Virus record (IMG/VR): IMGVR_UViG_3300028886_000034
Span: 118,081-182,080 of that record
Strand: one strand, 5' to 3'
Length of the DNA: 64,000 nucleotides
DNA from: a virus
Taxonomy: Duplodnaviria > Heunggongvirae > Uroviricota > Caudoviricetes
This document shows, one piece after another, positions 21,100-39,595 of this stretch. A model generated the notes under the pieces. The model did no database searches. It saw nothing but the letters and a program-made list of their open reading frames with translations, and was not told where the DNA came from. The translations under genes and the position numbers were made by a program. The first letter of the stretch is position 1. Every line of letters starts with the position of its first letter.

Positions 21100-21624
21100 A
21101 TTCATATAAAAGGTTAATCTCTTTTATAAGAGGTTCCTGCTGGCCTTCGGAAGTTTATATTCTGAGGGCCTTCTATATTACTTTTGGTTTATTGGGAGTT
21201 TAGGCCTTGTCTAACTTCCTTTAAATGTATAGAAACATACTTAAAAAGCATTAATGTTTTACTTGTGCAGAACATAATATGCTTTAAGAGTAAGTAAAAA
21301 TAATAGTTACAATAAGAGAATCTAATATTGATGCAAAGTAATTATCTATACTATTTTCAAAATAATTATTATCATTTAAAGTCATATAAATGAAGAAGAA
21401 GATCGAAGGACTTTAGTAGTGTAAGTAATTATGTAAACATTTTTATAAGATTTACTTTACTATTTTTATTGATTCTTAACAGTATGTTATTTATGCTCAA
21501 ATTAATGCAGTGTTATGTGATGTTAGCGAGTAATCATTTATTTTGATGTTACAATATGGTATGTTTAAAAAAATCTTAACTTAGTGTTTACTTTAATGTA
21601 AACTATTTTTGGAGGAATTTTCAA

Positions 21625-21898
21625 ATGGCAAATGATATTACTCGCGGCTTCTTAACTGAATCAGTTCATACTATGAATAAGATGGGCCTTGACCCTTATT
21701 CCAATTATAAAGAGATTTTAAGTGAGGATGCTCTTTTCAGCCACTATTCACAGTCTCTTGCTGAGGGTCTTGAAGGTGAGGTTAAGTCCTCATTCCTTAA
21801 TATGGCTGACCATATGCGTGGTTCTCTTGTTTCTGAGAGTACTGCTTATGGCTTTAGTCCTATTGCTCCCCTTACGCTTCCTATTTTCAGAAGGATGT
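21625..21898 (+). CDS. Major capsid protein (T4 gp23-like), exon 1 of 4; join(21625..21898,22189..23036,23356..23415,25282..25683), 527 aa
   Basis: GGAGG RBS. Ends LPIFRRM; splicing gives RRM-W-PQLVAREALTVLPM, matching the gp23 RRxxPxLxA...PM segment. Confidence 0.85.
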
Positions 21899-22188
21899 AG
21901 TAAAATTTGAGGCATGCATCCTAAAATTAATGCGAATTGCTGGAAAGTCCTAAAATTAAATATACTACAATGTATATAGTTAATAAATATTTAAATTGGA
22001 TAATCAGCAGGATATACTCTTATTAAAGAGAAATCTTCAACGACTAATTAAAGTTAACTAGTAATAGTTAAAACTTAAAGCACATTAACTCTATATAATA
22101 TAGAGATGATATAGTCTAATTGTATTCTTTATATAATGAAAATTAAATATCAGCTTATTTAATAAGTTATTAAAGTTGATGAATACAG
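21899..22188 (+). ncRNA. Group I intron 1 in MCP (290 nt, no ORF)
   Basis: Core: GAATTGCTGGAAA 21934, AATCAGCAGG 22002, TTCAACGACTA 22036, GATATAGTCT 22108. P1: exon GGATGT / GCATCC 21916 (U-G). P10: TGAGGC / exon-2 GCCTCA. P9.0: TGTATTC / GAATACA, then terminal G. Confidence 0.92.
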
Positions 22189-23036
22189 GGCCTCAGTTAG
22201 TTGCCCGCGAAGCTCTTACAGTCCTTCCCATGGACAAGCCCGAAATTGCTAAGAGCTTTATGAGAATTGTTGCCACTGTTGGTGGTAACGAGGTGGAAAT
22301 GCCCAACAACCGTGTTAGTGTTTCGACCGGTCAGGCATTTGGTGAATTGGGCCTCAATGTTGACATCGAGCCCATCAATGTTGTTATTTCAGGTAGCGGC
22401 GATCATATCCATCGTCTTGACCTTCTTGATCATATGAGCAATAGAGCTGGTCAGCCTGGTAAGTTCAATCCTACCAATGCTCACATTACTTCTGCTGATT
22501 TCGCCATTGTTGGCGTTACTCGCAGTGACGGTAAGGAAATTGATATCCATGTTGAGCCTGAAGACAGTGGCGCTTTTAGCTTTGCTGTTGAGTGCGATGG
22601 TATTGAGGATATCGTTTCTGGTAATATCAATTATACGACTGGTGTCTTCTCAATTTCTTCGACTCGTGAACATGCCAGTGGCGTGAAGGTTGAAAGTGTC
22701 CGTATTGTTGGTTCAATGACTCAGGCCGAGGAGATGTACGCTAATAAGGTTCACCTTAAGAATACATACGTTAAGTTCCGCGCCGAAGACATCGAGATTC
22801 AGACTGACTGGACGATCCAGGAAGAGCAGGACTATAAGGCCTACTTCGACATCGACATCCAGACTCAGCTTGTTGACCATATGGGTAAGATTATTGCTAT
22901 GGATATCGACCGTCGAATCCTTAATAAGCTTATTCGTGAGACTGAGCTTTTCAATCCTACCTCCTGTGGTAATGGCACCAGTGATGCCGATAGATTTACG
23001 TTTGATCGTAGACCTATGGCTAACTTTGCTTGGGGT
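22189..23036 (+). CDS. Major capsid protein exon 2 of 4
   Basis: Contains TDWTIQEEQDYKAYFDIDIQTQLVDHMGKIIAMDIDRRIL, comparable to the gp23 'wt.E.aQDl.a.hg.D.e.el...l..ei..eI.reil' region. Confidence 0.9.
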
Positions 23037-23355
23037 ACTTTTGTGCTCACTTTATAGAGTAATCTATAATGAAATCAAATATGAAATGCTGGAAGGTCCT
23101 TAGAGTCAAGTAAACTAAAAGTTGTTTAAAGCTAAATGTTGATAATTACTTGAATTGGATAATCAGCAGGATTAAATGAAAACTATAAATAAAGGTTAGT
23201 TATATTTTAATCTTCAACGACTACTTGTGTAAGACATGCTTATATGTTAAGCCAATGTCTGATGTTTATTTACCCTATAAAATATATTATGAATTTTAGG
23301 GATAAGATATAGTCTATAGTCCTTTTAATAAGTTACTAAAGTAGCTGTGGACTAG
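23037..23355 (+). ncRNA. Group I intron 2 in MCP (319 nt, no ORF)
   Basis: Core: AAATGCTGGAAG 23084, AATCAGCAGG 23161, TTCAACGACTA 23213, AAGATATAGTCT 23304. P9.0: TAGTCC / GGACTA, then terminal G. P1 is short (GGGT / GCTC). Frame is restored. Confidence 0.88.
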
Positions 23356-23415
23356 CCTAAAGAATGGAATAATCAAATCGTTGTTAAGCTCAACGATTTA
23401 AGTGCTAAAATTTAT
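23356..23415 (+). CDS. Major capsid protein exon 3 of 4 (60-nt micro-exon, PKEWNNQIVVKLNDLSAKIY)
   Basis: Not in the ORF track. Open frame between the intron 2 terminal G and the intron 3 P1 (exon AAATTTAT / GTAGGTT). Confidence 0.85.
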
Positions 23416-23883
23416 CAAAAAGTAGGTTAACTTCCTACTGTCAAGGTAAGCATATTGAGAAATCAGTATGTAGTGGTTTAATTCTTTCATATTCAATTAA
23501 ACTCCCTATCACCTGAATTGCTGGAAACTCTTAATAGTTAGTAAAACTACAACATAAATATGAAATATGGTTATATGTTAATGTTATGAAAATATAAAAA
23601 ATTTACTAAATAGTATAAGGTTAAACCCTAAGTACTTTTTTATTGCAATAGACAACCAGCATCTAAGTCCGAACAGGAAAAAGTTCAACGACTATCCCCC
23701 CTAAGGGGAGTACACTCAAGTGAGTGGAAGTGGGTGAATCCAAACAGGTAATGCTGTGGAATGAGATATAGTCTGTGCTTTAGCGAAAACTAAAGAAGGC
23801 TATTGTATATAGCCTGTGAGAAATTGACGACTTCTCATGAACAAAAACCTCTATAAATTAATTAAAGAAAATTATTGATCCTC

Positions 23884-23911
23884 TTGACTAAATGGATTTG
23901 AATGGTATACT
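23884..23911 (+). promoter_or_regulatory. Intron-internal sigma70-type promoter for tnpB
   Basis: TTGACT-16 bp-TATACT with a TG extension, then AAAGGAGG RBS at 23941. Confidence 0.55.
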
Positions 23912-23957
23912 TCTGGGTATAGAAGTTCAAATCTTTATAGAAAGGAGGATAACTAGA

Positions 23958-25235
23958 ATGAAACGAACAATTAAGCAGCGACTTAAACATCTTACTAAAG
24001 ATGAGTATTTGATTTTAAAAGAACTTACACACGAAGCTAAAAACATAGTTAATGAAGCTATTTATTTGAAGAGGCAGCATTTTTTTAATACTGGTTTATA
24101 TCTAGATGACAAAATGACTAGGAAACAAATGGAAGATAATCCTAGTTATAGGATCTTGAATTCTAATATGAGCCAACAGATTATTAAAAAAGTTGATTTA
24201 ATGTTTAAATCGTTTTTTGGATTGTTGAAAGCTAAAAAGTCTGGGAAAGTATCTTCTGATAGAAAAATACATATGCCAAGATATTTGGATAAAAATGGAT
24301 ATTATACGCTAATTATTCAAGAAGTTCCAAAATTCGAAAATAATAAATATTATGTGCCTTATACGTGGAAGTTTTCAAAAACTCATAAAAGAATAGCTAT
24401 TAAATTACCTTTAACTTTGGTTAATAAAAAAGATATGATAAAAGAAATTAGAATTGTTCCAAGGTATAATGCTAAGTTTTTCGAAGTACATTATGTGTAC
24501 AATATCGAAGAGACACAACCTCAAATTAATTTTGACTTATCAAAAGTATTAGCAATTGACCTAGGGATAAATAATTTTGCTACCTGTGTAACTACAGAAG
24601 GTAAATCATTTATTATTGATGGTAAAAAAATGAAAAGTTATAATCAATGGTATAATAAAAGAAATGCTATTCTTAGTGGGATTAAGGATAAACAAAAATT
24701 TGGAAATGACTTAACTAAGCAACAGATTTGTCTTACCTTAAAAAGAAATAATCGAATATTGGATTATATTAGTAAAGCTTCTAAGTATATTATTAATTAT
24801 TGTATTTCTAATAAAATAGGTACAATTATTTTAGGGTATCGTGAAGACTTTCAAGATAAGTTCAATATAGGAGTAAAAAACAACCAAATTTTTGGGTATA
24901 CACCTTTTGGGCAGTTTAAGTTTAAATTAGAATATTTATGTGATGAAGTTGGTATTAGCTTAATAATCCAAGAAGAGAGTTATACATCTAAAGCATCTTT
25001 TTTAGATAACGATGATATTCCTATATATGATAAAAACAATCTCCTTGAATACTCTTTCTCAGGGAGACGCATTAAAAGAGGATTATATAAATCTGCTAAG
25101 GGTATATTAATTAATGCTGATGTTAATGCTGCATTTAATATTCTTCGTAAAAGTAAGATTGTGCCTAACGAAATTGTTAGACTATATTCTAGTGGTGCTC
25201 TGAGCACACCTGTAAGAATAAGGCTACATCAATAG
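23958..25235 (+). CDS. tnpB: TnpB RNA-guided endonuclease (IS200/IS605-type, no C-terminal Zn-finger cysteines), intron-encoded
   Basis: RuvC-I LAIDLGINN, QEESYTSKASFLD, RuvC-III INADVNAAFNILRK, C-terminal TPVRI. Start moved to the ATG after AAAGGAGG (track start 23892). Confidence 0.92.
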   Translation: MKRTIKQRLKHLTKDEYLILKELTHEAKNIVNEAIYLKRQHFFNTGLYLDDKMTRKQMEDNPSYRILNSNMSQQIIKKVDLMFKSFFGLLKAKKSGKVSSDRKIHMPRYLDKNGYYTLIIQEVPKFENNKYYVPYTWKFSKTHKRIAIKLPLTLVNKKDMIKEIRIVPRYNAKFFEVHYVYNIEETQPQINFDLSKVLAIDLGINNFATCVTTEGKSFIIDGKKMKSYNQWYNKRNAILSGIKDKQKFGNDLTKQQICLTLKRNNRILDYISKASKYIINYCISNKIGTIILGYREDFQDKFNIGVKNNQIFGYTPFGQFKFKLEYLCDEVGISLIIQEESYTSKASFLDNDDIPIYDKNNLLEYSFSGRRIKRGLYKSAKGILINADVNAAFNILRKSKIVPNEIVRLYSSGALSTPVRIRLHQ

Positions 25236-25281
25236 TAAACTTCTTACAAATTAATAATTTCTTTAATTATTAAGAGTTCAG

Positions 25282-25683
25282 GTTGACACGAATATGACCC
25301 AGCCCAATGTCCTTATCGCCAATCCTCTTGATCTGGCTTTATTCAAGAATACCTCTGACTATAAGTTTGAGGGCGATATCAAGGGCGGTGAGTACGGGGA
25401 GACTCCTGTTGCCGGTACACTTAACGACACCTGGAAGGCTCTTAGTACTCCTCTTATGCCTCAAGGTAAGATCCTTGTTCTTATCAAGCCCACTGATGAG
25501 GCTAACGCAGTGTTTGTCTATGCTCCTTATAAGCCCCTTGTTGTTTCGCCTTGGCCTCTTGGTCGTATTCCTTCGATGACCTTTATCAGCCGCTTTGCTA
25601 CGAGATTCATTCGTAGAGAGGGTGTTGGTATCCTTCGTGTCATCGGTGGAGAGAATGGCGGTTTCTATGGTGCTCGTGGCTAA
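25282..25683 (+). CDS. Major capsid protein exon 4 of 4
   Basis: VDTNMTQPNVLIANP...FVYAPYKP...TFISRF resembles the gp23 C-terminus (N.ii.sp, yAPY, f.tRY). Confidence 0.9.
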   Translation, partial: VDTNMTQPNVLIANPLDLALFKNTSDYKFEGDIKGGEYGETPVAGTLNDTWKALSTPLMPQGKILVLIKPTDEANAVFVYAPYKPLVVSPWPLGRIPSMTFISRFATRFIRREGVGILRVIGGENGGFYGARG

Positions 25684-25723
25684 TAGAAATTAGTACAGCA
25701 ATAAGAAATAGACAAATATAATT

Positions 25724-26495: not shown

Positions 26496-26771
26496 TTACA
26501 ACTTATACACATCACCGGCGCATTCGCACCTTTTCAGGTCTTCAGCGTCGTAGATGTGGTCATTGGTATATGCTACTTCGGATACGATAATATCCGAAAT
26601 AACAATACCATCTTCGCCACATAGTGTGGCTTCAAGAATCCGCTGAGGAAGATTGTTAACTTCCTCCTCAGCGGTAGCTCTGATAGCTGAAGATGCTGTC
26701 CAGCTATCCTCATCATAGAAGCTCCCATAATGGGAGACTTCCGCGTGGATGCAGAAAAGTTTTTTGGTCAT
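26496..26771 (-). CDS. Hypothetical protein
   Basis: 91-aa ORF with GAGGAGG RBS; higher GC than its surroundings. Confidence 0.65.
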   Translation of the reverse strand: MTKKLFCIHAEVSHYGSFYDEDSWTASSAIRATAEEEVNNLPQRILEATLCGEDGIVISDIIVSEVAYTNDHIYDAEDLKRCECAGDVYKL

Positions 26772-26773
26772 GG

Positions 26774-27193
26774 TTATCGTACCTCCTCTTTAACCATACA
26801 CTGTTTCTCCTGATTCCAAACCAACTCTGGAAAAGCCTTCAATGTCACTGGAGATTTTACACCCCAGTTCTTCCACGGTTCTTCAAAGAGCCACCTTGTC
26901 ACACCGTCTTCCGGGGTGGACGGCTTCGTTTTCTTTTTCCTTTTGGAGACTTTTTTGAACGCATCTCCAAAACAGGTAGAGATGATGCTTCTATCTCGAA
27001 GAAATAACTTTTTATTGCTGCTATTATTTTCCCCATAGAATTTCTGTAAAATTATTTCTGTGGGGATTCCACCAAGCCCTCGGTAAAACTCTTGGTTCTC
27101 GACCATAAAACGCATCAGGTCGAAAACCCGAAGGACTGGTACTGACGCGACATTTCTATTACCTGCCATGTTATCATCCTCCAATATATTCAT
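26774..27193 (-). CDS. Hypothetical protein
   Basis: 139-aa ORF; may start at the downstream ATG (MAGNR) after GGAGG. Confidence 0.6.
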   Translation of the reverse strand: MNILEDDNMAGNRNVASVPVLRVFDLMRFMVENQEFYRGLGGIPTEIILQKFYGENNSSNKKLFLRDRSIISTCFGDAFKKVSKRKKKTKPSTPEDGVTRWLFEEPWKNWGVKSPVTLKAFPELVWNQEKQCMVKEEVR

Positions 27194-35034: not shown

Positions 35035-37956
35035 ATGCCTATTACATATACTTGGGCTGAAGTAGAACCTGTACATGTAGAACAGTATATTACTGCTGAA
35101 AGAAATAATGAACAGAATGATATACTTCAGTCTAGAGATTTATTTTTATCTAGACGATTTGATGAGTATTATAAAAAAGTAGATATTGATAACTTATTTA
35201 ATTCATATACAACAAATTTAGATTGGAAAGAATCGGTAGATACATTTGATGATATTTTATTAAAGTATCCAACGCAAGAACAGATAGATACAACTTATAC
35301 TAAATTAGATACAGTTGTTAATACATATGAAGAGTTATTACAATTATATCCAAATAATTTTGATGATATTGAGTGGCAAGAACCAGTAGATAATGTTGAA
35401 GATATTGAACCTAAATATCCTCAGCCTGATGGAGAATGGGGAGTAGAAGTATTAAGTACTCATGAAAAGTATGCATATGATCCTATAACAGATACTTGGC
35501 ATAAAACAATATCTTTACCTGAAGATAAGTGGAGAGTAGATTTAGTAGATGGTACAAAGTATGTATATGATGCTGAGTCAAAAGCCTGGAAATTATTGGA
35601 TGCGCCAGTACAAGATGGTTGGACAATAAATGTAAAGGATACAAATTATACTTATAGATATGATGAACCTACTAATACATGGATACCTATAAGTGCAAAT
35701 GCTATTCCATTAGCTACAACGGAATTAGATGGTTTATTAAATAAAACTGATTATGCATTTATTAGATCATTAGGATTAGAATCAGTTTTTAAGGATATGG
35801 GATTAATCGATGAGAATGGTAATGTGGTAGATGTTCAAGGTATAGTTAATGCAAGTATAATTCCTACTATTTATTTAAAGATGTCTCAAATGGAAGAGAA
35901 GATGCTTCCATTAGGTTCAGTTATACCATTTATGTTTAATACAAATGTACCTCCAGCAGGTTTTGTCTTTGCTGAAGGTCAAGAGTTATTAAGGGAAGAG
36001 TATCCAGATCTTTGGGAAAAAATTTCTACTGAAGTAGATTTAGAAGGAAATCCATTAATTATAGAAGATGCTGATAGATATGATTATCCTGGTAAATTTA
36101 CTAAGGGTGATGGCAATGCAACATTTAGGGTACCCAATCTAAAGGGATACTTCTTAAGAGCTTTGGATGATTCTGGAAGAGAATTTGGATCTAGACAAGG
36201 TGATTCAGTTGCAGAGCATAGTCATAAATTAATGGTAACTGGCGTAGGTTCAATTAATGAAGAAGATGAGGATTTAGTTCAAGAAGGTAGATTAGTTTTA
36301 TCAGGGACTACTTCTAATTCATTTTCAGATAGTACTGTTTTAGCTAGATATACTTCCGATGAATTAGAAACTAGACCTCAAAATATTGCATTAAGATACT
36401 TAGTTAAAGTTATACCAAGTGAAAAAGTTCCTACTATAGTTTCTAAAGGAAGTCTTCCAGATATTCATGAAGCTATTGATGCAGATACTTTAAATGGCCA
36501 TGCATCTTCATTAAATGCTCAGGCTGGTTATATTCCTGTTGCTAATGCACAAGGTAAGTTAGATGCGTCTTGGTTTAATACGGATTCTTTATTTGAGGAT
36601 ATTTTTGTTAATGATTCAGAAGTATCTAATGTTCCAGATTCAAACAAAATCCCTAGAACAACTAGTACTGGAAAATTGGATGAATGGTTAAGTGTAGTTA
36701 CAGAAGCTGACGTAGATAAATGGATCAGATATTTAGCAGCAGATCCTGAAGATGAAGCTAATATATTAGACTTATCTTCTTTTGATGATTCAAGAGATAG
36801 TTATAAGTATGTTGTAACTAAAAAGAAATTTATTAAGTTTTTAACAGGATTAAAATTATTCATAGGTACTTATGACCATCATTATACTACAGAAGATATT
36901 GAACCAACTTCTGAAAGAGGCTATATTAGTAATTCTGAAAGAAATAAGTATTCTAATAAATATACTAGAGAAGAAACCTATCAGCTAATATATAATTTCT
37001 TACAAAGTTATGTTCCTTTAACAGATATTTCTGTAGTTCCTTCTCCTAATAAAATTCCTATTGCTAATGAAGATGGTAAATTAGATTCAGGTTGGATGTC
37101 AGATCTTTTCTTAAATAAGATTGGTGAAAATAATAATACTGGTTATGCAGAAGTTTCTAATCACGAAATTACTATAAAATCTGGTATTTTAAATACTTCT
37201 GAATCTGGTAAAGTTACTATTCAGGGTGGCGGAGAATACAGTTTATCTGAGATGTCTCCTGCTAAAGCTGTTATATCTGGTTATGACAATGTTGAGTCTA
37301 AAGGTGGTAATATTGAACTTTATGCTGGTTCTGGAGGTAGTACTTCTTCCTCTATTGGAGGTAGTATAATTTTACAATCAGGTTCAGGTCAGTATTCAGA
37401 TGGTACTGTTGATTTAAATAATATTAAGGTAAATAAAAATAACACTATCTATACTAATGAAAATAATATAAGATTACAACAAAATGATGGCATCAATAAT
37501 ACTAATTATTTGGAAATCAATAATAATGGTATTACTTATGTTCATGATAACTTAGTTAATGATAGTGATGATTATAGATTAACTATTAATAAAGATGGTT
37601 CAGTTGAATCCAATAAACCTAATGTTGCTAATAGTTTAACTATACTTAATAATAAAGCATTAGTACCCTTTGAAAATTTACCTAAAACTTCTATTGTAAA
37701 TAATATTGGTAATTTTAGTTCTAACCAAACTATCAGTACTTATGAAGGTAATGTTATTGTTGGAAATATTGCACAAAATTGTAATTTAACTATTGCAGAT
37801 AGTACTAACAATTTAGAAGCTAGAGAACTTACATTTGTTTTAACTGCAACTGGTCCATATAGTATAAATTGGCCTGTAAATATCATTTGGACTAGTGGAA
37901 GATCTCCTTATATAGAATATGCGGAAACTGCGATAATAAAATTATTTAGAATTGGT
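35035..37956 (+). CDS. Tail collar/tail fibre protein, exon 1 of 2; join(35035..37956,39596..39874), 1066 aa
   Basis: Tail collar domain (PLGSVIPF, PAGFVFAEGQ, FRVPNLKGYFLR, ETRPQNIAL). Exon ends FRIG at the group I P1 U-G pair. Confidence 0.8.
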
Positions 37957-38259
37957 AATCGTTAATAACGATTGCCACTTCGCAAAGTAATTTGCGTCGT
38001 ATTTTTGATTGTGAATTACGGGAAAACCTACATAAGAGTCGTAACTACCGAATGGTAATAATGTTACGAATTAGGTAATCCGTAGCCGTGTTTAATAGTA
38101 ATTAAACAGGTTCAACGACTATCGTTCATAGAGCGAGTAAGATAGACGATATATTGCGTCAATGTCTGATGTACAAAGGCCACTATTATGTGGTTGAAGA
38201 TATAGTCTAGGCATGTTAACGTACAGCGAAAGCAATGTACGAGGTTATATAGATCACCC

Positions 38260-38289
38260 TTGACAATTCCGAACAAATTATGATACTAT
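38260..38289 (+). promoter_or_regulatory. Intron-internal promoter for tnpB (sigma70-type, with embedded AACAAATT)
   Basis: TTGACA-18 bp-TACTAT with a TG extension; AACAAATT at 38272. Confidence 0.5.
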
Positions 38290-38325
38290 TGTGGTATCGG
38301 AAACATAAAATTTGTCGGACAGGAG

Positions 38326-39486
38326 GTGATGACCTTGATAATACGTCACAAAATTGAATTGATTCTTAACAATAGCATGAAACGTTATTTTGATCAGTGT
38401 TTCGGATATAGTCGATATTCGTGGAATCAACTTCTTGGGATGCATAATAACGATAAAACGACTTCTTTAAACGAACAACTTAAGCAATTTAAAGCTGATC
38501 GACAGAAGTGGGAGTATGCTATGCCATCATATATCCCTACTTATGAAATGCAGAACCTTAAAGCAGCATTAAGACGAAAAACACATAAAGCTAATTTTAA
38601 ATCTAAAAAGAATCCTAAACAATCGTTTTATGTGGATAATTCTCGTTTTTTAAAAGGAAGCTTTTCGATAGTAGGTAAGCATATAAAGTTTGGTATCGTT
38701 TTGGGAAGAAAGTGTCGAATTCGTAAACAGGACCGATGGATGAAATTAACGGAGATACCAGCGTTTTTCGGTGAAAAAGATTTCCGTATTTTATCAGTAA
38801 CGATACTTAAAGAAGTAGATCGATACTATGCGTCATTTTGTATTCAGATTGATTATCGAAGTAAAACTACCGGAACGAATGCGGTTGGTATTGATCCGGG
38901 AGTGCATACAGTGATGACACTTTCAGATGGTACAAAATACGAATCACCGAAAACACTCAAGAAACTAGATCAAAAAGCGAAATACTATCAAAAGCGTATG
39001 TCGAAACGCTATATACGAAATGCTAAGAAACAAAGTAAGCGTTATATGAAAGCGAAAATCAAGCATCAGAAAACGCTTCGCCGTAAGAATCAAATCAAAA
39101 CAGACTTTATGCATAAGGCAACAACTGAGATCGTAAAGCGAAACAATTATATCGCTTGGGAAGACTGTAAATCATCGCGACTTATGAGGAATCATAAACT
39201 CGCCAGATCGATTGGCGAATCGTGTTGGTTTACACTAAAAACGATGTTGGAGCAAAAATGTCAAATGCATAGAGCCACTTTTGATTTAGTTGATCCGATA
39301 AACGCCGCAACACAAACTTGCAGTGAGTGCGGGCATCGTTTTGAAGGTGATGAAAAGCTGAATTTAAATGACAGAGTATATATCTGCCCTGAATGCGGAT
39401 TAAAACTAGATCGAGACGTAAACGCTGCTCGAAACATTCTCAAGTTTTCGAAGCGTAAGCTGGCTGGGGCACAGCCATCCGAATAA
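38326..39486 (+). CDS. tnpB: TnpB RNA-guided endonuclease with Zn finger, intron-encoded
   Basis: N-terminal HTH-type segment (YFDQCFGYSRYSWN). RuvC motifs GIDPG, IAWED, DRDVNAARNI. Zn finger CSECG/CPECG. True start may be TTG 38335. Confidence 0.92.
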   Translation: MMTLIIRHKIELILNNSMKRYFDQCFGYSRYSWNQLLGMHNNDKTTSLNEQLKQFKADRQKWEYAMPSYIPTYEMQNLKAALRRKTHKANFKSKKNPKQSFYVDNSRFLKGSFSIVGKHIKFGIVLGRKCRIRKQDRWMKLTEIPAFFGEKDFRILSVTILKEVDRYYASFCIQIDYRSKTTGTNAVGIDPGVHTVMTLSDGTKYESPKTLKKLDQKAKYYQKRMSKRYIRNAKKQSKRYMKAKIKHQKTLRRKNQIKTDFMHKATTEIVKRNNYIAWEDCKSSRLMRNHKLARSIGESCWFTLKTMLEQKCQMHRATFDLVDPINAATQTCSECGHRFEGDEKLNLNDRVYICPECGLKLDRDVNAARNILKFSKRKLAGAQPSE

Positions 39487-39595
39487 CGCTGGAGTAGTCA
39501 TAAGACCTCCAGCAGTATCGGAGGCAGCTACGTTTGTACAGCGTTGAGCAAGGTCAGTAACGGAGTAATTCGTTGCGTAAGAACCTGCATGTCAG

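Follow-up and report, generated by a model that had tools for sequence, protein, structure and literature searches.

The major capsid gene of a phage with a 284-kb genome is interrupted by three group I introns, the last of which carries a tnpB gene and is almost certainly a stripped-down group A (IS200/IS605-type) IStron, lodged directly after the pentamer TTTAT, with an IA2-like ribozyme at its 5′ end and a right end that doubles as a putative omegaRNA scaffold and a 3′ splice site. Contigs from public RNA data show that the capsid transcript is spliced exactly between positions 23415 and 25282, giving ...AAA ATT TAT/GTT GAC..., and that both upstream introns are removed as well. The stretch analyzed here, called the window, comprises 64,000 nucleotides (G000:C1:118081-182080) of a viral record of 284,119 bp that has direct terminal repeats and is rated complete. 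Its G+C content is about 25-30% (that of the genome is given as 28%), it encodes a T4-type prohead protease (Peptidase_S77) in addition to the gp23-like major capsid protein, and cattle-gut sequencing runs hold near-identical DNA and RNA. A TnpB-carrying group I intron at 23416-25281 had been proposed earlier from the letters of the window alone (the original prediction), and every feature listed there was found at the coordinates given for it.

Open reading frames (ORFs) similar to Gp23 break off and resume around three A+T-rich gaps, and a related 275-kb phage contig (L003) carries an intron-less homologue encoding an uninterrupted capsid protein of 534 aa. Alignment to L003 was used to set the exon borders compiled in Table 1. 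When joined, the four exons form a single ORF of 1584 nt (527 aa) whose product is 84% identical to the L003 protein over residues 4-526, with 5 gap positions; across the site of intron 3, the L003 protein reads ...SAKIY/VDTNMTQPN. For each of the three introns, the 5′ exon ends in T and the intron ends in G. Intron 3 extends from C23416 to G25281, the 5′ exon ending with AAATTTAT (23408-23415) and exon 4 starting with GTTGACACG at 25282. The capsid exons have a G+C content of 41-49%, compared with 23-31% for the introns and neighboring genes, and another G+C-rich stretch lies at 26500-27100, where the ORFs are on the minus strand.

Metatranscriptome contigs from three cattle-gut RNA runs (X5, X6 and X7, belonging to three studies) were placed on positions 21600-25700. 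All three runs yielded contigs containing the intron 3 joint (23415>25282, TAT/GTT), at which 1866 nt are skipped, and likewise the joints of intron 1 (21898>22189, 290 nt) and intron 2 (23036>23356, 319 nt). One 616-nt contig from run X7 (record 26, depth 2490) passes unbroken through exons 2, 3 and 4. The TAT/GTT junction, which the original prediction had put forward for examination by reverse transcription-PCR, is thus read base-exactly in public RNA contigs. Such joints prove the exact removal of the intron and the ligation of its exons, and are not informative as to whether the reaction is autocatalytic. None of these joints was found in DNA run X11, which covers the region only patchily and in short pieces, so that an intron-less DNA allele is neither favored nor excluded by this result; in the DNA runs that contain the stretch, 99-100% of its sampled words are present, introns included. 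A separate contig from run X6 (record 21, 22707-23036 followed by 25282-25566, depth 6.5, about 10% diverged), in which exons 2 and 4 are linked via 60 other letters, represents either the spliced capsid mRNA of a related strain or an intron-less DNA allele. In all three runs intron 3 exceeds introns 1 and 2 in contig depth by a factor of 2 to 8 (25.8 versus 8.1 and 11.9; 149 versus 46 and 56; 661 versus 82 and 218), which, contig depth being a poor gauge of expression, offers a weak hint that intron 3 is also expressed separately.

From 5′ to 3′, the element and its flank present TTTAT, a GTAGG/CCTAC stem-loop, GTCAA, GGTAAG, the P2 hairpin, a P3-P9 core, a promoter, AGGAGG, tnpB, AAACTTCTTAC, a 9-bp hairpin and GAGTTCAG. 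The claim that a full group I core is present was borne out by an Rfam match of 43.2 bits over 23470-23795 and by the core motifs J6/7 (TTCAACGACTA) and J8/7 (GAGATATAGTC); moreover, over 61 nt the core has 87% identity with group I introns from Staphylococcus phage Twort and from relatives of that phage. The score falls under the 50-bit gathering score of the Rfam Intron_gpI family because of an insertion of about 100 nt in the P5 region and the presence of an ORF 3′ of the core. Searches of the whole window, or of 5.5 kb, did not report intron 3, which was matched only when 23380-23960 was searched alone.

A minimum free energy (MFE) fold of 23404-23472 (-19.1 kcal/mol, z = -4.78) pairs UUUAU with GUAAG and GUAGG with CCUAC. 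T23415 is paired to G23446 in this fold, and G25281 is the 3′-terminal base of the intron. The motif GTAAG occurs in 29 of 31 intron-bearing loci in which the region could be located, its pairing with TTTAT consisting of G-U, U-A, A-U, A-U and G-U pairs. Because GTAAG is conserved and is the segment that the MFE fold pairs with UUUAU, GGTAAG (23445-23450) is most likely the functional guide of intron 3. GTAGGTT, to which the original prediction had assigned this role, is indeed complementary to the exon sequence AATTTAT, but probably does not form a functional P1: in relatives, the sequence at this position is unconserved and unable to pair with the exon. A 5-bp P10 (GTCAA/TTGAC) can also be drawn between the intron and exon 4; it is absent from relatives, may be due to chance, and was not counted as evidence.

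Group A IStrons are distinguished by insertion after TTGAT, ATTAT or TTTAT and by a 3′ end that reads TCAG (Tourasse 2014, PMC4227781). Intron 3 exhibits TTTAT at 23411-23415, TCAG at 25278-25281 and an IS200/IS605-type tnpB gene 3′ of its ribozyme. The family to which its TnpB belongs has 4766 representatives at E <= 0.001, and about 250 loci were taken from viral, genome and metagenome collections. In a subset of these loci, tnpB is preceded at a distance of 190-210 nt by the same group I core, and the genes that are interrupted are unrelated (UvrD helicase, tail tube protein, RNA polymerase beta subunit, diacylglycerol kinase, QueA and others). Rfam gave no match at E 0.01 for L004-L006, though core motifs are visible there by eye. 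N-TTAT precedes all 22 intron-bearing relatives that were read by eye, and takes the form TTTAT in 16 of them, in agreement with the earlier suggestion, and with the published signature (PMC4227781), that the 5′ flank is an IS200/IS605-like target motif. All relatives with a core end in TTCAG, whereas 54 core-less loci end in GTTCAC, the counts being approximate since they derive from a crude script, with the intron-bearing set checked by eye. This split supports the proposal that the right end is adapted to provide the terminal G of the intron.

In canonical relatives (L010, L013 and L155), exon TTTAT is followed by a stem enclosing a hairpin of about 20 nt (e.g., CGTGACTTTAGTCATG), then by GTAAG and P2. 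The enclosed left-end hairpin resembles that of the right end and is the expected TnpA substrate. It is absent from the window element and its closest relatives, and for this reason we file the element as a derivative rather than as a canonical member of group A. We infer that the GTAGG/CCTAC stem is a remnant of the stem that formerly enclosed this hairpin. The complete 284-kb genome contains no match to Y1 TnpA (PF01797) or to serine recombinase (PF00239), in searches whose positive controls were matched; ORF A is often missing from described IStrons too (PMC13565253).

A maximum-likelihood tree of 61 TnpBs gathers the stripped phage copies (the window element, P0152, L170, L172, L253, L255, L005 and L004) into one clade (ultrafast bootstrap 99, Shimodaira-Hasegawa approximate likelihood ratio test 82) that is nested among canonical IStron and IS605 TnpBs. 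The nearest TnpB, P0152 from an ENA contig of 58,972 bp, is 68% identical and is likewise located between capsid-gene fragments; L172, L253 and L255 represent one same gene in three contigs, and L005 lies between fragments of the RNA polymerase beta gene. A stripped copy from a bacterial chromosome (L115) falls elsewhere on the tree, which implies that the left-end hairpin can be lost more than once. L170 (3493-5317 of a Logan contig, run ERR3224581) is a stripped TnpB intron after GGTTTAT whose joined exons read ...QRVY/MFGGISGGGKS, so that the site lies just before a Walker-A-like motif, apparently of a DnaB-like helicase; a gp23-type capsid gene and a polymerase split by an intein are found in the same phage. 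A single-protein search of the viral_contigs collection returned no relative of the window TnpB, a scan of metagenome_contigs with a sub-clade alignment returned nothing above 55% identity, and deposited phage genomes contained nothing above 38%.

The ORF at 23958-25235, correctly designated as tnpB in the original prediction, encodes a protein matching OrfB_IS605 (8.8e-23) and Cas12f1-like_TNB (2.5e-8) of Pfam as well as the NCBIfam model guided_TnpB (171.9 bits, cut-off 100). Its AlphaFold2 model has a predicted local distance difference test score of 95.5 and a predicted template modeling (TM) score of 0.91, and the top Foldseek matches are AsCas12f, ISFba1 TnpB and ISDra2 TnpB (TM 0.58-0.71). 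The RuvC-II segment reads IILGYRED and, as had been noticed at the outset, lacks the canonical Glu of the ExL motif; alignment to AsCas12f places G293 where canonical TnpB and Cas12f proteins have this residue. G293 is invariant in 101 sequences, and E340 of the QEESYTS motif, 47 residues downstream, is at least 90% conserved among them, which lends weight to the earlier nomination of this glutamate as a rearranged catalytic residue. Candidate catalytic residues are D201 (IDLG), E340 and D388 (NADVN), of which D201 and D388 are canonical, and TnpB would use this putative set with its relocated glutamate. In the model, G293 closes strand 287-293 and E340 comes after strand 334-338. This placement is in line with the beta-5 glutamate of RuvC-II-rearranged (RIIr) TnpB clades, which are predicted to be active (Altae-Tran 2023, PMC10691335). 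The likeness to these groups is one of motifs, and consists of the Gly in place of the RuvC-II Glu, the conserved Glu after the next beta-strand and a RuvC-III motif of the form NADxN. The window TnpB is also without zinc-finger cysteines, the C4 zinc finger having been lost only in some branches according to PMC10691335.

An internal promoter and ribosome-binding site (RBS) had also been predicted, and both were recovered: TTGACT-16-TATACT at 23884-23911 and AGGAGG at 23943-23948. Promoter-like matches in the region are not in excess (13, versus 12.4 in shuffled sequence). The position of the promoter is conserved in the stripped clade, however, where a TTGAC...TATAAT/TATACT pair occurs at constant distance from the RBS in 7/7 loci with DNA, the window included. 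At the other end of the element, the perfect 9-bp subterminal hairpin, 8 nt from TTCAG, is exactly as originally described. Composed wholly of A-T pairs in the window, it matches in position and length the hairpin of relatives, which is G+C-rich. RNAalifold, applied to the last 140 nt of tnpB and the right end in 40 loci, predicts four helices (CTAAC/GTTAG, GGTG/CACC, GTAAGAA/TTCTTAC and the right-end hairpin) with compensatory changes in 14 of 18 pairs, and all four helices are present in the window. Two of them are within coding sequence, so that conservation alone is limited as evidence; the double changes that preserve pairing are still hard to explain otherwise.

By analogy with IS200/IS605 and IStron biology (PMC10690162, PMC13565253), RNA-guided intron homing is a plausible, and the best-supported, mechanism for the spread of this element, and we consider the mechanism as a whole, homing included, to be reasonably probable. 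P1 would arise by pairing of UUUAU with the conserved guide GGUAAG, the splice site being marked by a U-G pair and G25281 serving as the terminal G. The internal sigma-70-like promoter, which lies downstream of the ribozyme core, would drive the expression of tnpB. Because transcripts that start there lack the core, they would be unable to splice and would retain exon 4 bases on the scaffold, so that they could yield a guide-bearing omegaRNA. TnpB and this RNA would then cut capsid alleles in which TTTAT, acting as the target-adjacent motif (TAM), abuts GTTGACACGAAT..., namely the intron-less genomes of co-infecting relatives, and repair off the intron-bearing genome would copy the intron into them. 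The predicted target next to the TAM position reads GTTGACACGAATATGACCCA. A search of the 284-kb genome with the first 12 bases of the predicted guide gave a single match, which has GAGTTCAG rather than TTTAT in front of it; because the intron separates the TAM from this sole match, the phage's own copy would be spared. A transposase would play no part, none being encoded in the genome and the left-end hairpin being gone. Movement of TnpB-only IStrons by intron homing is so far a proposal (2026 review, PMC13565253).

Several observations weigh against this proposal. L003, the only intron-less relative with DNA, reads TCTAT where TTTAT would be needed and differs from the 20-nt target by 4 mismatches. 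Its allele would probably escape cleavage, and a cleavable one has yet to be found. The conservation of TTAT could stem from P1 pairing, or from an ancestral TnpA, instead of from TnpB. Branches in the phage clade are long (0.27-1.26 changes per site), which fits old, vertically inherited copies as well as it fits active homing. The RNA contigs, in addition, cannot reveal an omegaRNA, its ends or a transcription start. An extension of the homing proposal to the whole clade is tentative, and we regard it as a possibility that is more doubtful than not: the stripped phage elements, being monophyletic, would have lost the left-end hairpin once, yet entered at least four to five essential phage genes (capsid, DnaB-like helicase, RNA polymerase beta and two others) through a TnpA-independent route to TTAT sites, such as ribozyme-guided reverse splicing, and would have been kept and spread by TnpB through RNA-guided homing between co-infecting phages.

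Other histories can be envisioned for the capsid element. It might be a fixed relic that arrived a single time, as an IStron or a homing intron, and is now a harmless self-splicing intron whose TnpB and RNA no longer cut, or whose targets are gone, and whose loss would require a precise deletion. The transposase and the left-end hairpin are both missing, as would be expected of a relic, and the long branches of the phage clade, the lack of a matching target in the lone intron-less relative, and the occupation of the same site by a relative whose TnpB is just 68% identical, which fits vertical descent, all point the same way; the possible site-specific P10 hints at long residence. Nevertheless, the 425-codon ORF has stayed intact in a 28% G+C genome, and so have the RBS, the promoter, the RNA helices and all three catalytic positions; the right-end hairpin was not lost but rebuilt in A-T pairs; and related stripped elements occupy at least four different genes, which shows that the lineage has moved. 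We view the relic as unlikely. More improbable still is that TnpB has taken on another job, either excluding rival phages by cutting their capsid genes without homing, or binding the 3′ region of the intron to tune capsid splicing in the manner of a maturase or repressor. In IStrons, omegaRNA formation and splicing do vie for one 3′ end (PMC10690162, PMC13565253), the interrupted gene is the most highly expressed late gene, another TnpB in the same genome has apparently turned into a CRISPR effector, and the intron RNA is relatively abundant, a weak point in favor. There is, however, no specific pointer to regulation; catalytic residues that binding alone would not need have been retained; and cutting of capsid genes in a mixed infection would yield homing anyway, given active recombination.

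The two remaining accounts differ from RNA-guided homing in the origin of the element or of its mobility. An ordinary IStron could be moved in trans by the Y1 TnpA of IS200/IS605 copies in the host, as is thought to occur for the common group A IStrons without tnpA (PMC4227781), and canonical relatives do occur in Firmicutes of the rumen and gut as well as in viral contigs. Mobilization of this kind is very improbable here, as the left-end subterminal hairpin that TnpA requires is absent and the 5′ stem left over (GTAGG/CCTAC) is unlike the right-end hairpin. We give least credence to a nested arrangement, in which an independent group I intron, already present, received in its P9 loop an insertion sequence (IS) with only TnpB, the ends of the IS being unrelated to the splice sites. 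The position of the ORF 3′ of the ribozyme core, a frequent place for homing-endonuclease genes, is compatible with such nesting, but the right end of the TnpB unit coincides base-exactly with the 3′ splice site, and the order TTAT, guide GTAAG, core, promoter, tnpB, right end and TTCAG is common to about 25 relatives in unrelated genes.

Compared with group A IStrons such as CdISt1 of Clostridioides difficile and FnISt1 (PMC4227781), the window element has the same arrangement of a 5′ IA2-type ribozyme, an IS200/IS605-type tnpB and a 3′ right end, the same insertion after a T-rich pentamer (TTTAT) and TCAG end, and splice sites that coincide with the element ends; its TnpB lies within the same radiation as those of Fusobacterium, Peptacetobacter and other Firmicutes elements. 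It differs in having neither tnpA nor a left-end subterminal hairpin, in its single, all-A-T right-end hairpin, in its residence in an essential virion gene of a 284-kb phage, and in its membership of a separate clade of stripped phage copies. CboIStron, an IS607-type (group B) element of Clostridium botulinum (Zedaveinyte et al., PMC10690162), combines, as is predicted for the window element, a group I intron, TnpB and omegaRNA in one transcript, with a 3′ splice site that is also the boundary between scaffold and guide, making splicing and guide formation mutually exclusive, and a TAM that forms the context of the 5′ splice site. Unlike the window element, with its IS605-type TTTAT and TCAG, its relocated RuvC-II Glu and its lack of both zinc finger and transposase, CboIStron has a serine-recombinase TnpA, a TGGG TAM, a CGG end and a canonical TnpB. 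Phage group I introns with homing endonucleases (T4 td and nrdB, Twort and SPO1-type) are also self-splicing introns in essential genes with a nuclease ORF outside the core, and they too are proposed to spread by cutting the intron-less allele in mixed infection. GIY-YIG, HNH and LAGLIDADG enzymes, however, read DNA through protein, whereas the nuclease of the window would read its target via an RNA guide drawn from the intron-exon boundary.

Table 1. Features of the interrupted capsid gene and of intron 3 (window coordinates)
Feature	Position	Strand	Basis
Capsid (gp23-like) exon 1	21625-21898	+	ORF; end set by L003 (...IFRRM/WPQL) and RNA joint 21898>22189
Group I intron 1, 290 nt, no ORF	21899-22188	+	Rfam Intron_gpI 31.8 bits; exactly skipped in contigs of 3 RNA runs
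Capsid exon 2	22189-23036	+	Pfam Gp23 7.8e-7; L003 alignment; RNA joints on both sides
Group I intron 2, 319 nt, no ORF	23037-23355	+	Rfam Intron_gpI 27.5 bits; exactly skipped in 3 RNA runs
Capsid exon 3, 60-nt micro-exon (20 codons), PKEWNNQIVVKLNDLSAKIY	23356-23415	+	Matches L003 residues ...PREWNNQIVVKLNDLSAKIY; contig joining exons 2, 3 and 4 in run X7
TTTAT: P1 5′ strand, IStron target pentamer, predicted TAM	23411-23415	+	N-TTAT before 22/22 relatives; pairs with GUAAG in MFE fold; TAM role from IS200/IS605 biology
Intron 3, TnpA-less group A IStron-type element, 1866 nt	23416-25281	+	Exact skip in 3 RNA runs; architecture common to relatives
GTAGG/CCTAC stem-loop in P1 loop, at the place of the left-end hairpin of relatives	23421-23439	+	MFE fold; comparison with L010, L013 and L155
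GTCAA, candidate P10 strand, complementary to TTGAC of exon 4 (25283-25287, exon bases 2-6)	23440-23444	+	Sequence reading
GGTAAG, probable internal guide sequence, P1 3′ strand	23445-23450	+	GTAAG conservation; directly 5′ of P2; MFE pairing with UUUAU
P2 hairpin, CATATTGA-GAAA-TCAGTATG	23451-23470	+	MFE fold; GAAA-capped equivalents in relatives
Group I catalytic core (P3-P9)	23470-23795	+	Rfam RF00028 43.2 bits, E 1e-9; Twort similarity
Sigma-70-like tnpB promoter, TTGACT-16-TATACT, TG before -10	23884-23911	+	Sequence; position conserved in clade; downstream of ribozyme core
RBS, AGGAGG	23943-23948	+	Sequence; AAAGGAGG conserved 5′ of start codon in relatives
tnpB, 425 aa, open frame	23958-25235	+	Family scans, alignments, AlphaFold2 model, Foldseek
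OmegaRNA-like scaffold over tnpB 3′ end and right end	25160-25281	+	RNAalifold on relatives; window fold
Right-end hairpin, 9 bp, all A-T, TTAATAATT (25251-25259) / AATTATTAA (25265-25273)	25251-25273	+	Sequence, fold
Terminal TTCAG, G25281 as intron 3′-terminal G	25277-25281	+	RNA joint; TTCAG in intron-bearing versus TTCAC in intron-less relatives
Capsid exon 4, including stop codon	25282-25683	+	Pfam Gp23 2.2e-4; 88% identity to L003; RNA joint
Predicted guide/target segment, start of exon 4	25282-25301	+	Inferred from IS200/IS605 TnpB biology

The capsid element is not the only TnpB-carrying intron in this genome, where four genes of the TnpB family and a minimum of six group I intron cores (four Rfam matches plus capsid introns 2 and 3) were counted. 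A second TnpB-carrying group I intron is located at 37951-39595 of the window, apparently at the 3′ end of a 976-aa ORF (35035-37965); its core scores 59 bits in Rfam over 37951-38226, and it ends ...CATGTCAG at about 39595. The TnpB that it encodes (38326-39486, 386 aa) features a zinc ribbon as well as the canonical RuvC-II Glu, and has no relationship to that of the capsid intron (BLASTP E 0.006). A third such intron, a paralogue of the second, lies outside the window on the minus strand (G000:C1 about 211,200-212,970; L256 about 905-2663), where it interrupts a 444-aa ORF and contains core motifs, a promoter, an RBS, a canonical TnpB of 424 aa and a GTTTCAG end. The fourth gene, at G000:C1 about 76,000-78,400 (L002 862-3195), adjoins a DNA polymerase B fragment and encodes a TnpB-like protein of 494 aa that shares the Gly-for-Glu change of the capsid-intron TnpB and, over residues 157-399, has 38% identity to it. 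Behind this gene come about 10 direct repeats of about 36 nt at a period of 66, an arrangement like that of a mini type V CRISPR array. As judged from these sequences, one genome thus contains three TnpB introns of two lineages and a putative TnpB-derived CRISPR effector, without any transposase.

IStrons are known from the chromosomes of Firmicutes and Fusobacteria and from two Clostridium botulinum phages; copies with only ORF B have been described, and the phage copies, in C. botulinum phages c-st and D-1873, belong to group B (PMC4227781). Searches of a literature library yielded no paper that reports an IStron from a large virulent-type phage or from a capsid gene. To this background the present case adds direct RNA evidence of splicing, the loss of the left-end hairpin across a phage clade, and a capsid gene with three introns and a 60-nt exon. 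That micro-exon would be overlooked by gene callers, which would report the capsid gene as fragments. With no transposase, no left-end hairpin, a site in the most highly expressed gene of the phage and accurate splicing in the rumen, the element offers a clean natural test of the homing idea. If its nuclease is active, it would constitute an RNA-guided homing endonuclease whose target can be read, and changed, from the exon sequence. Should the clade-wide extension of the homing proposal prove true, protein-only homing endonucleases would have given way to TnpB in phage introns, and in this genome apparently to two unrelated TnpB lineages.

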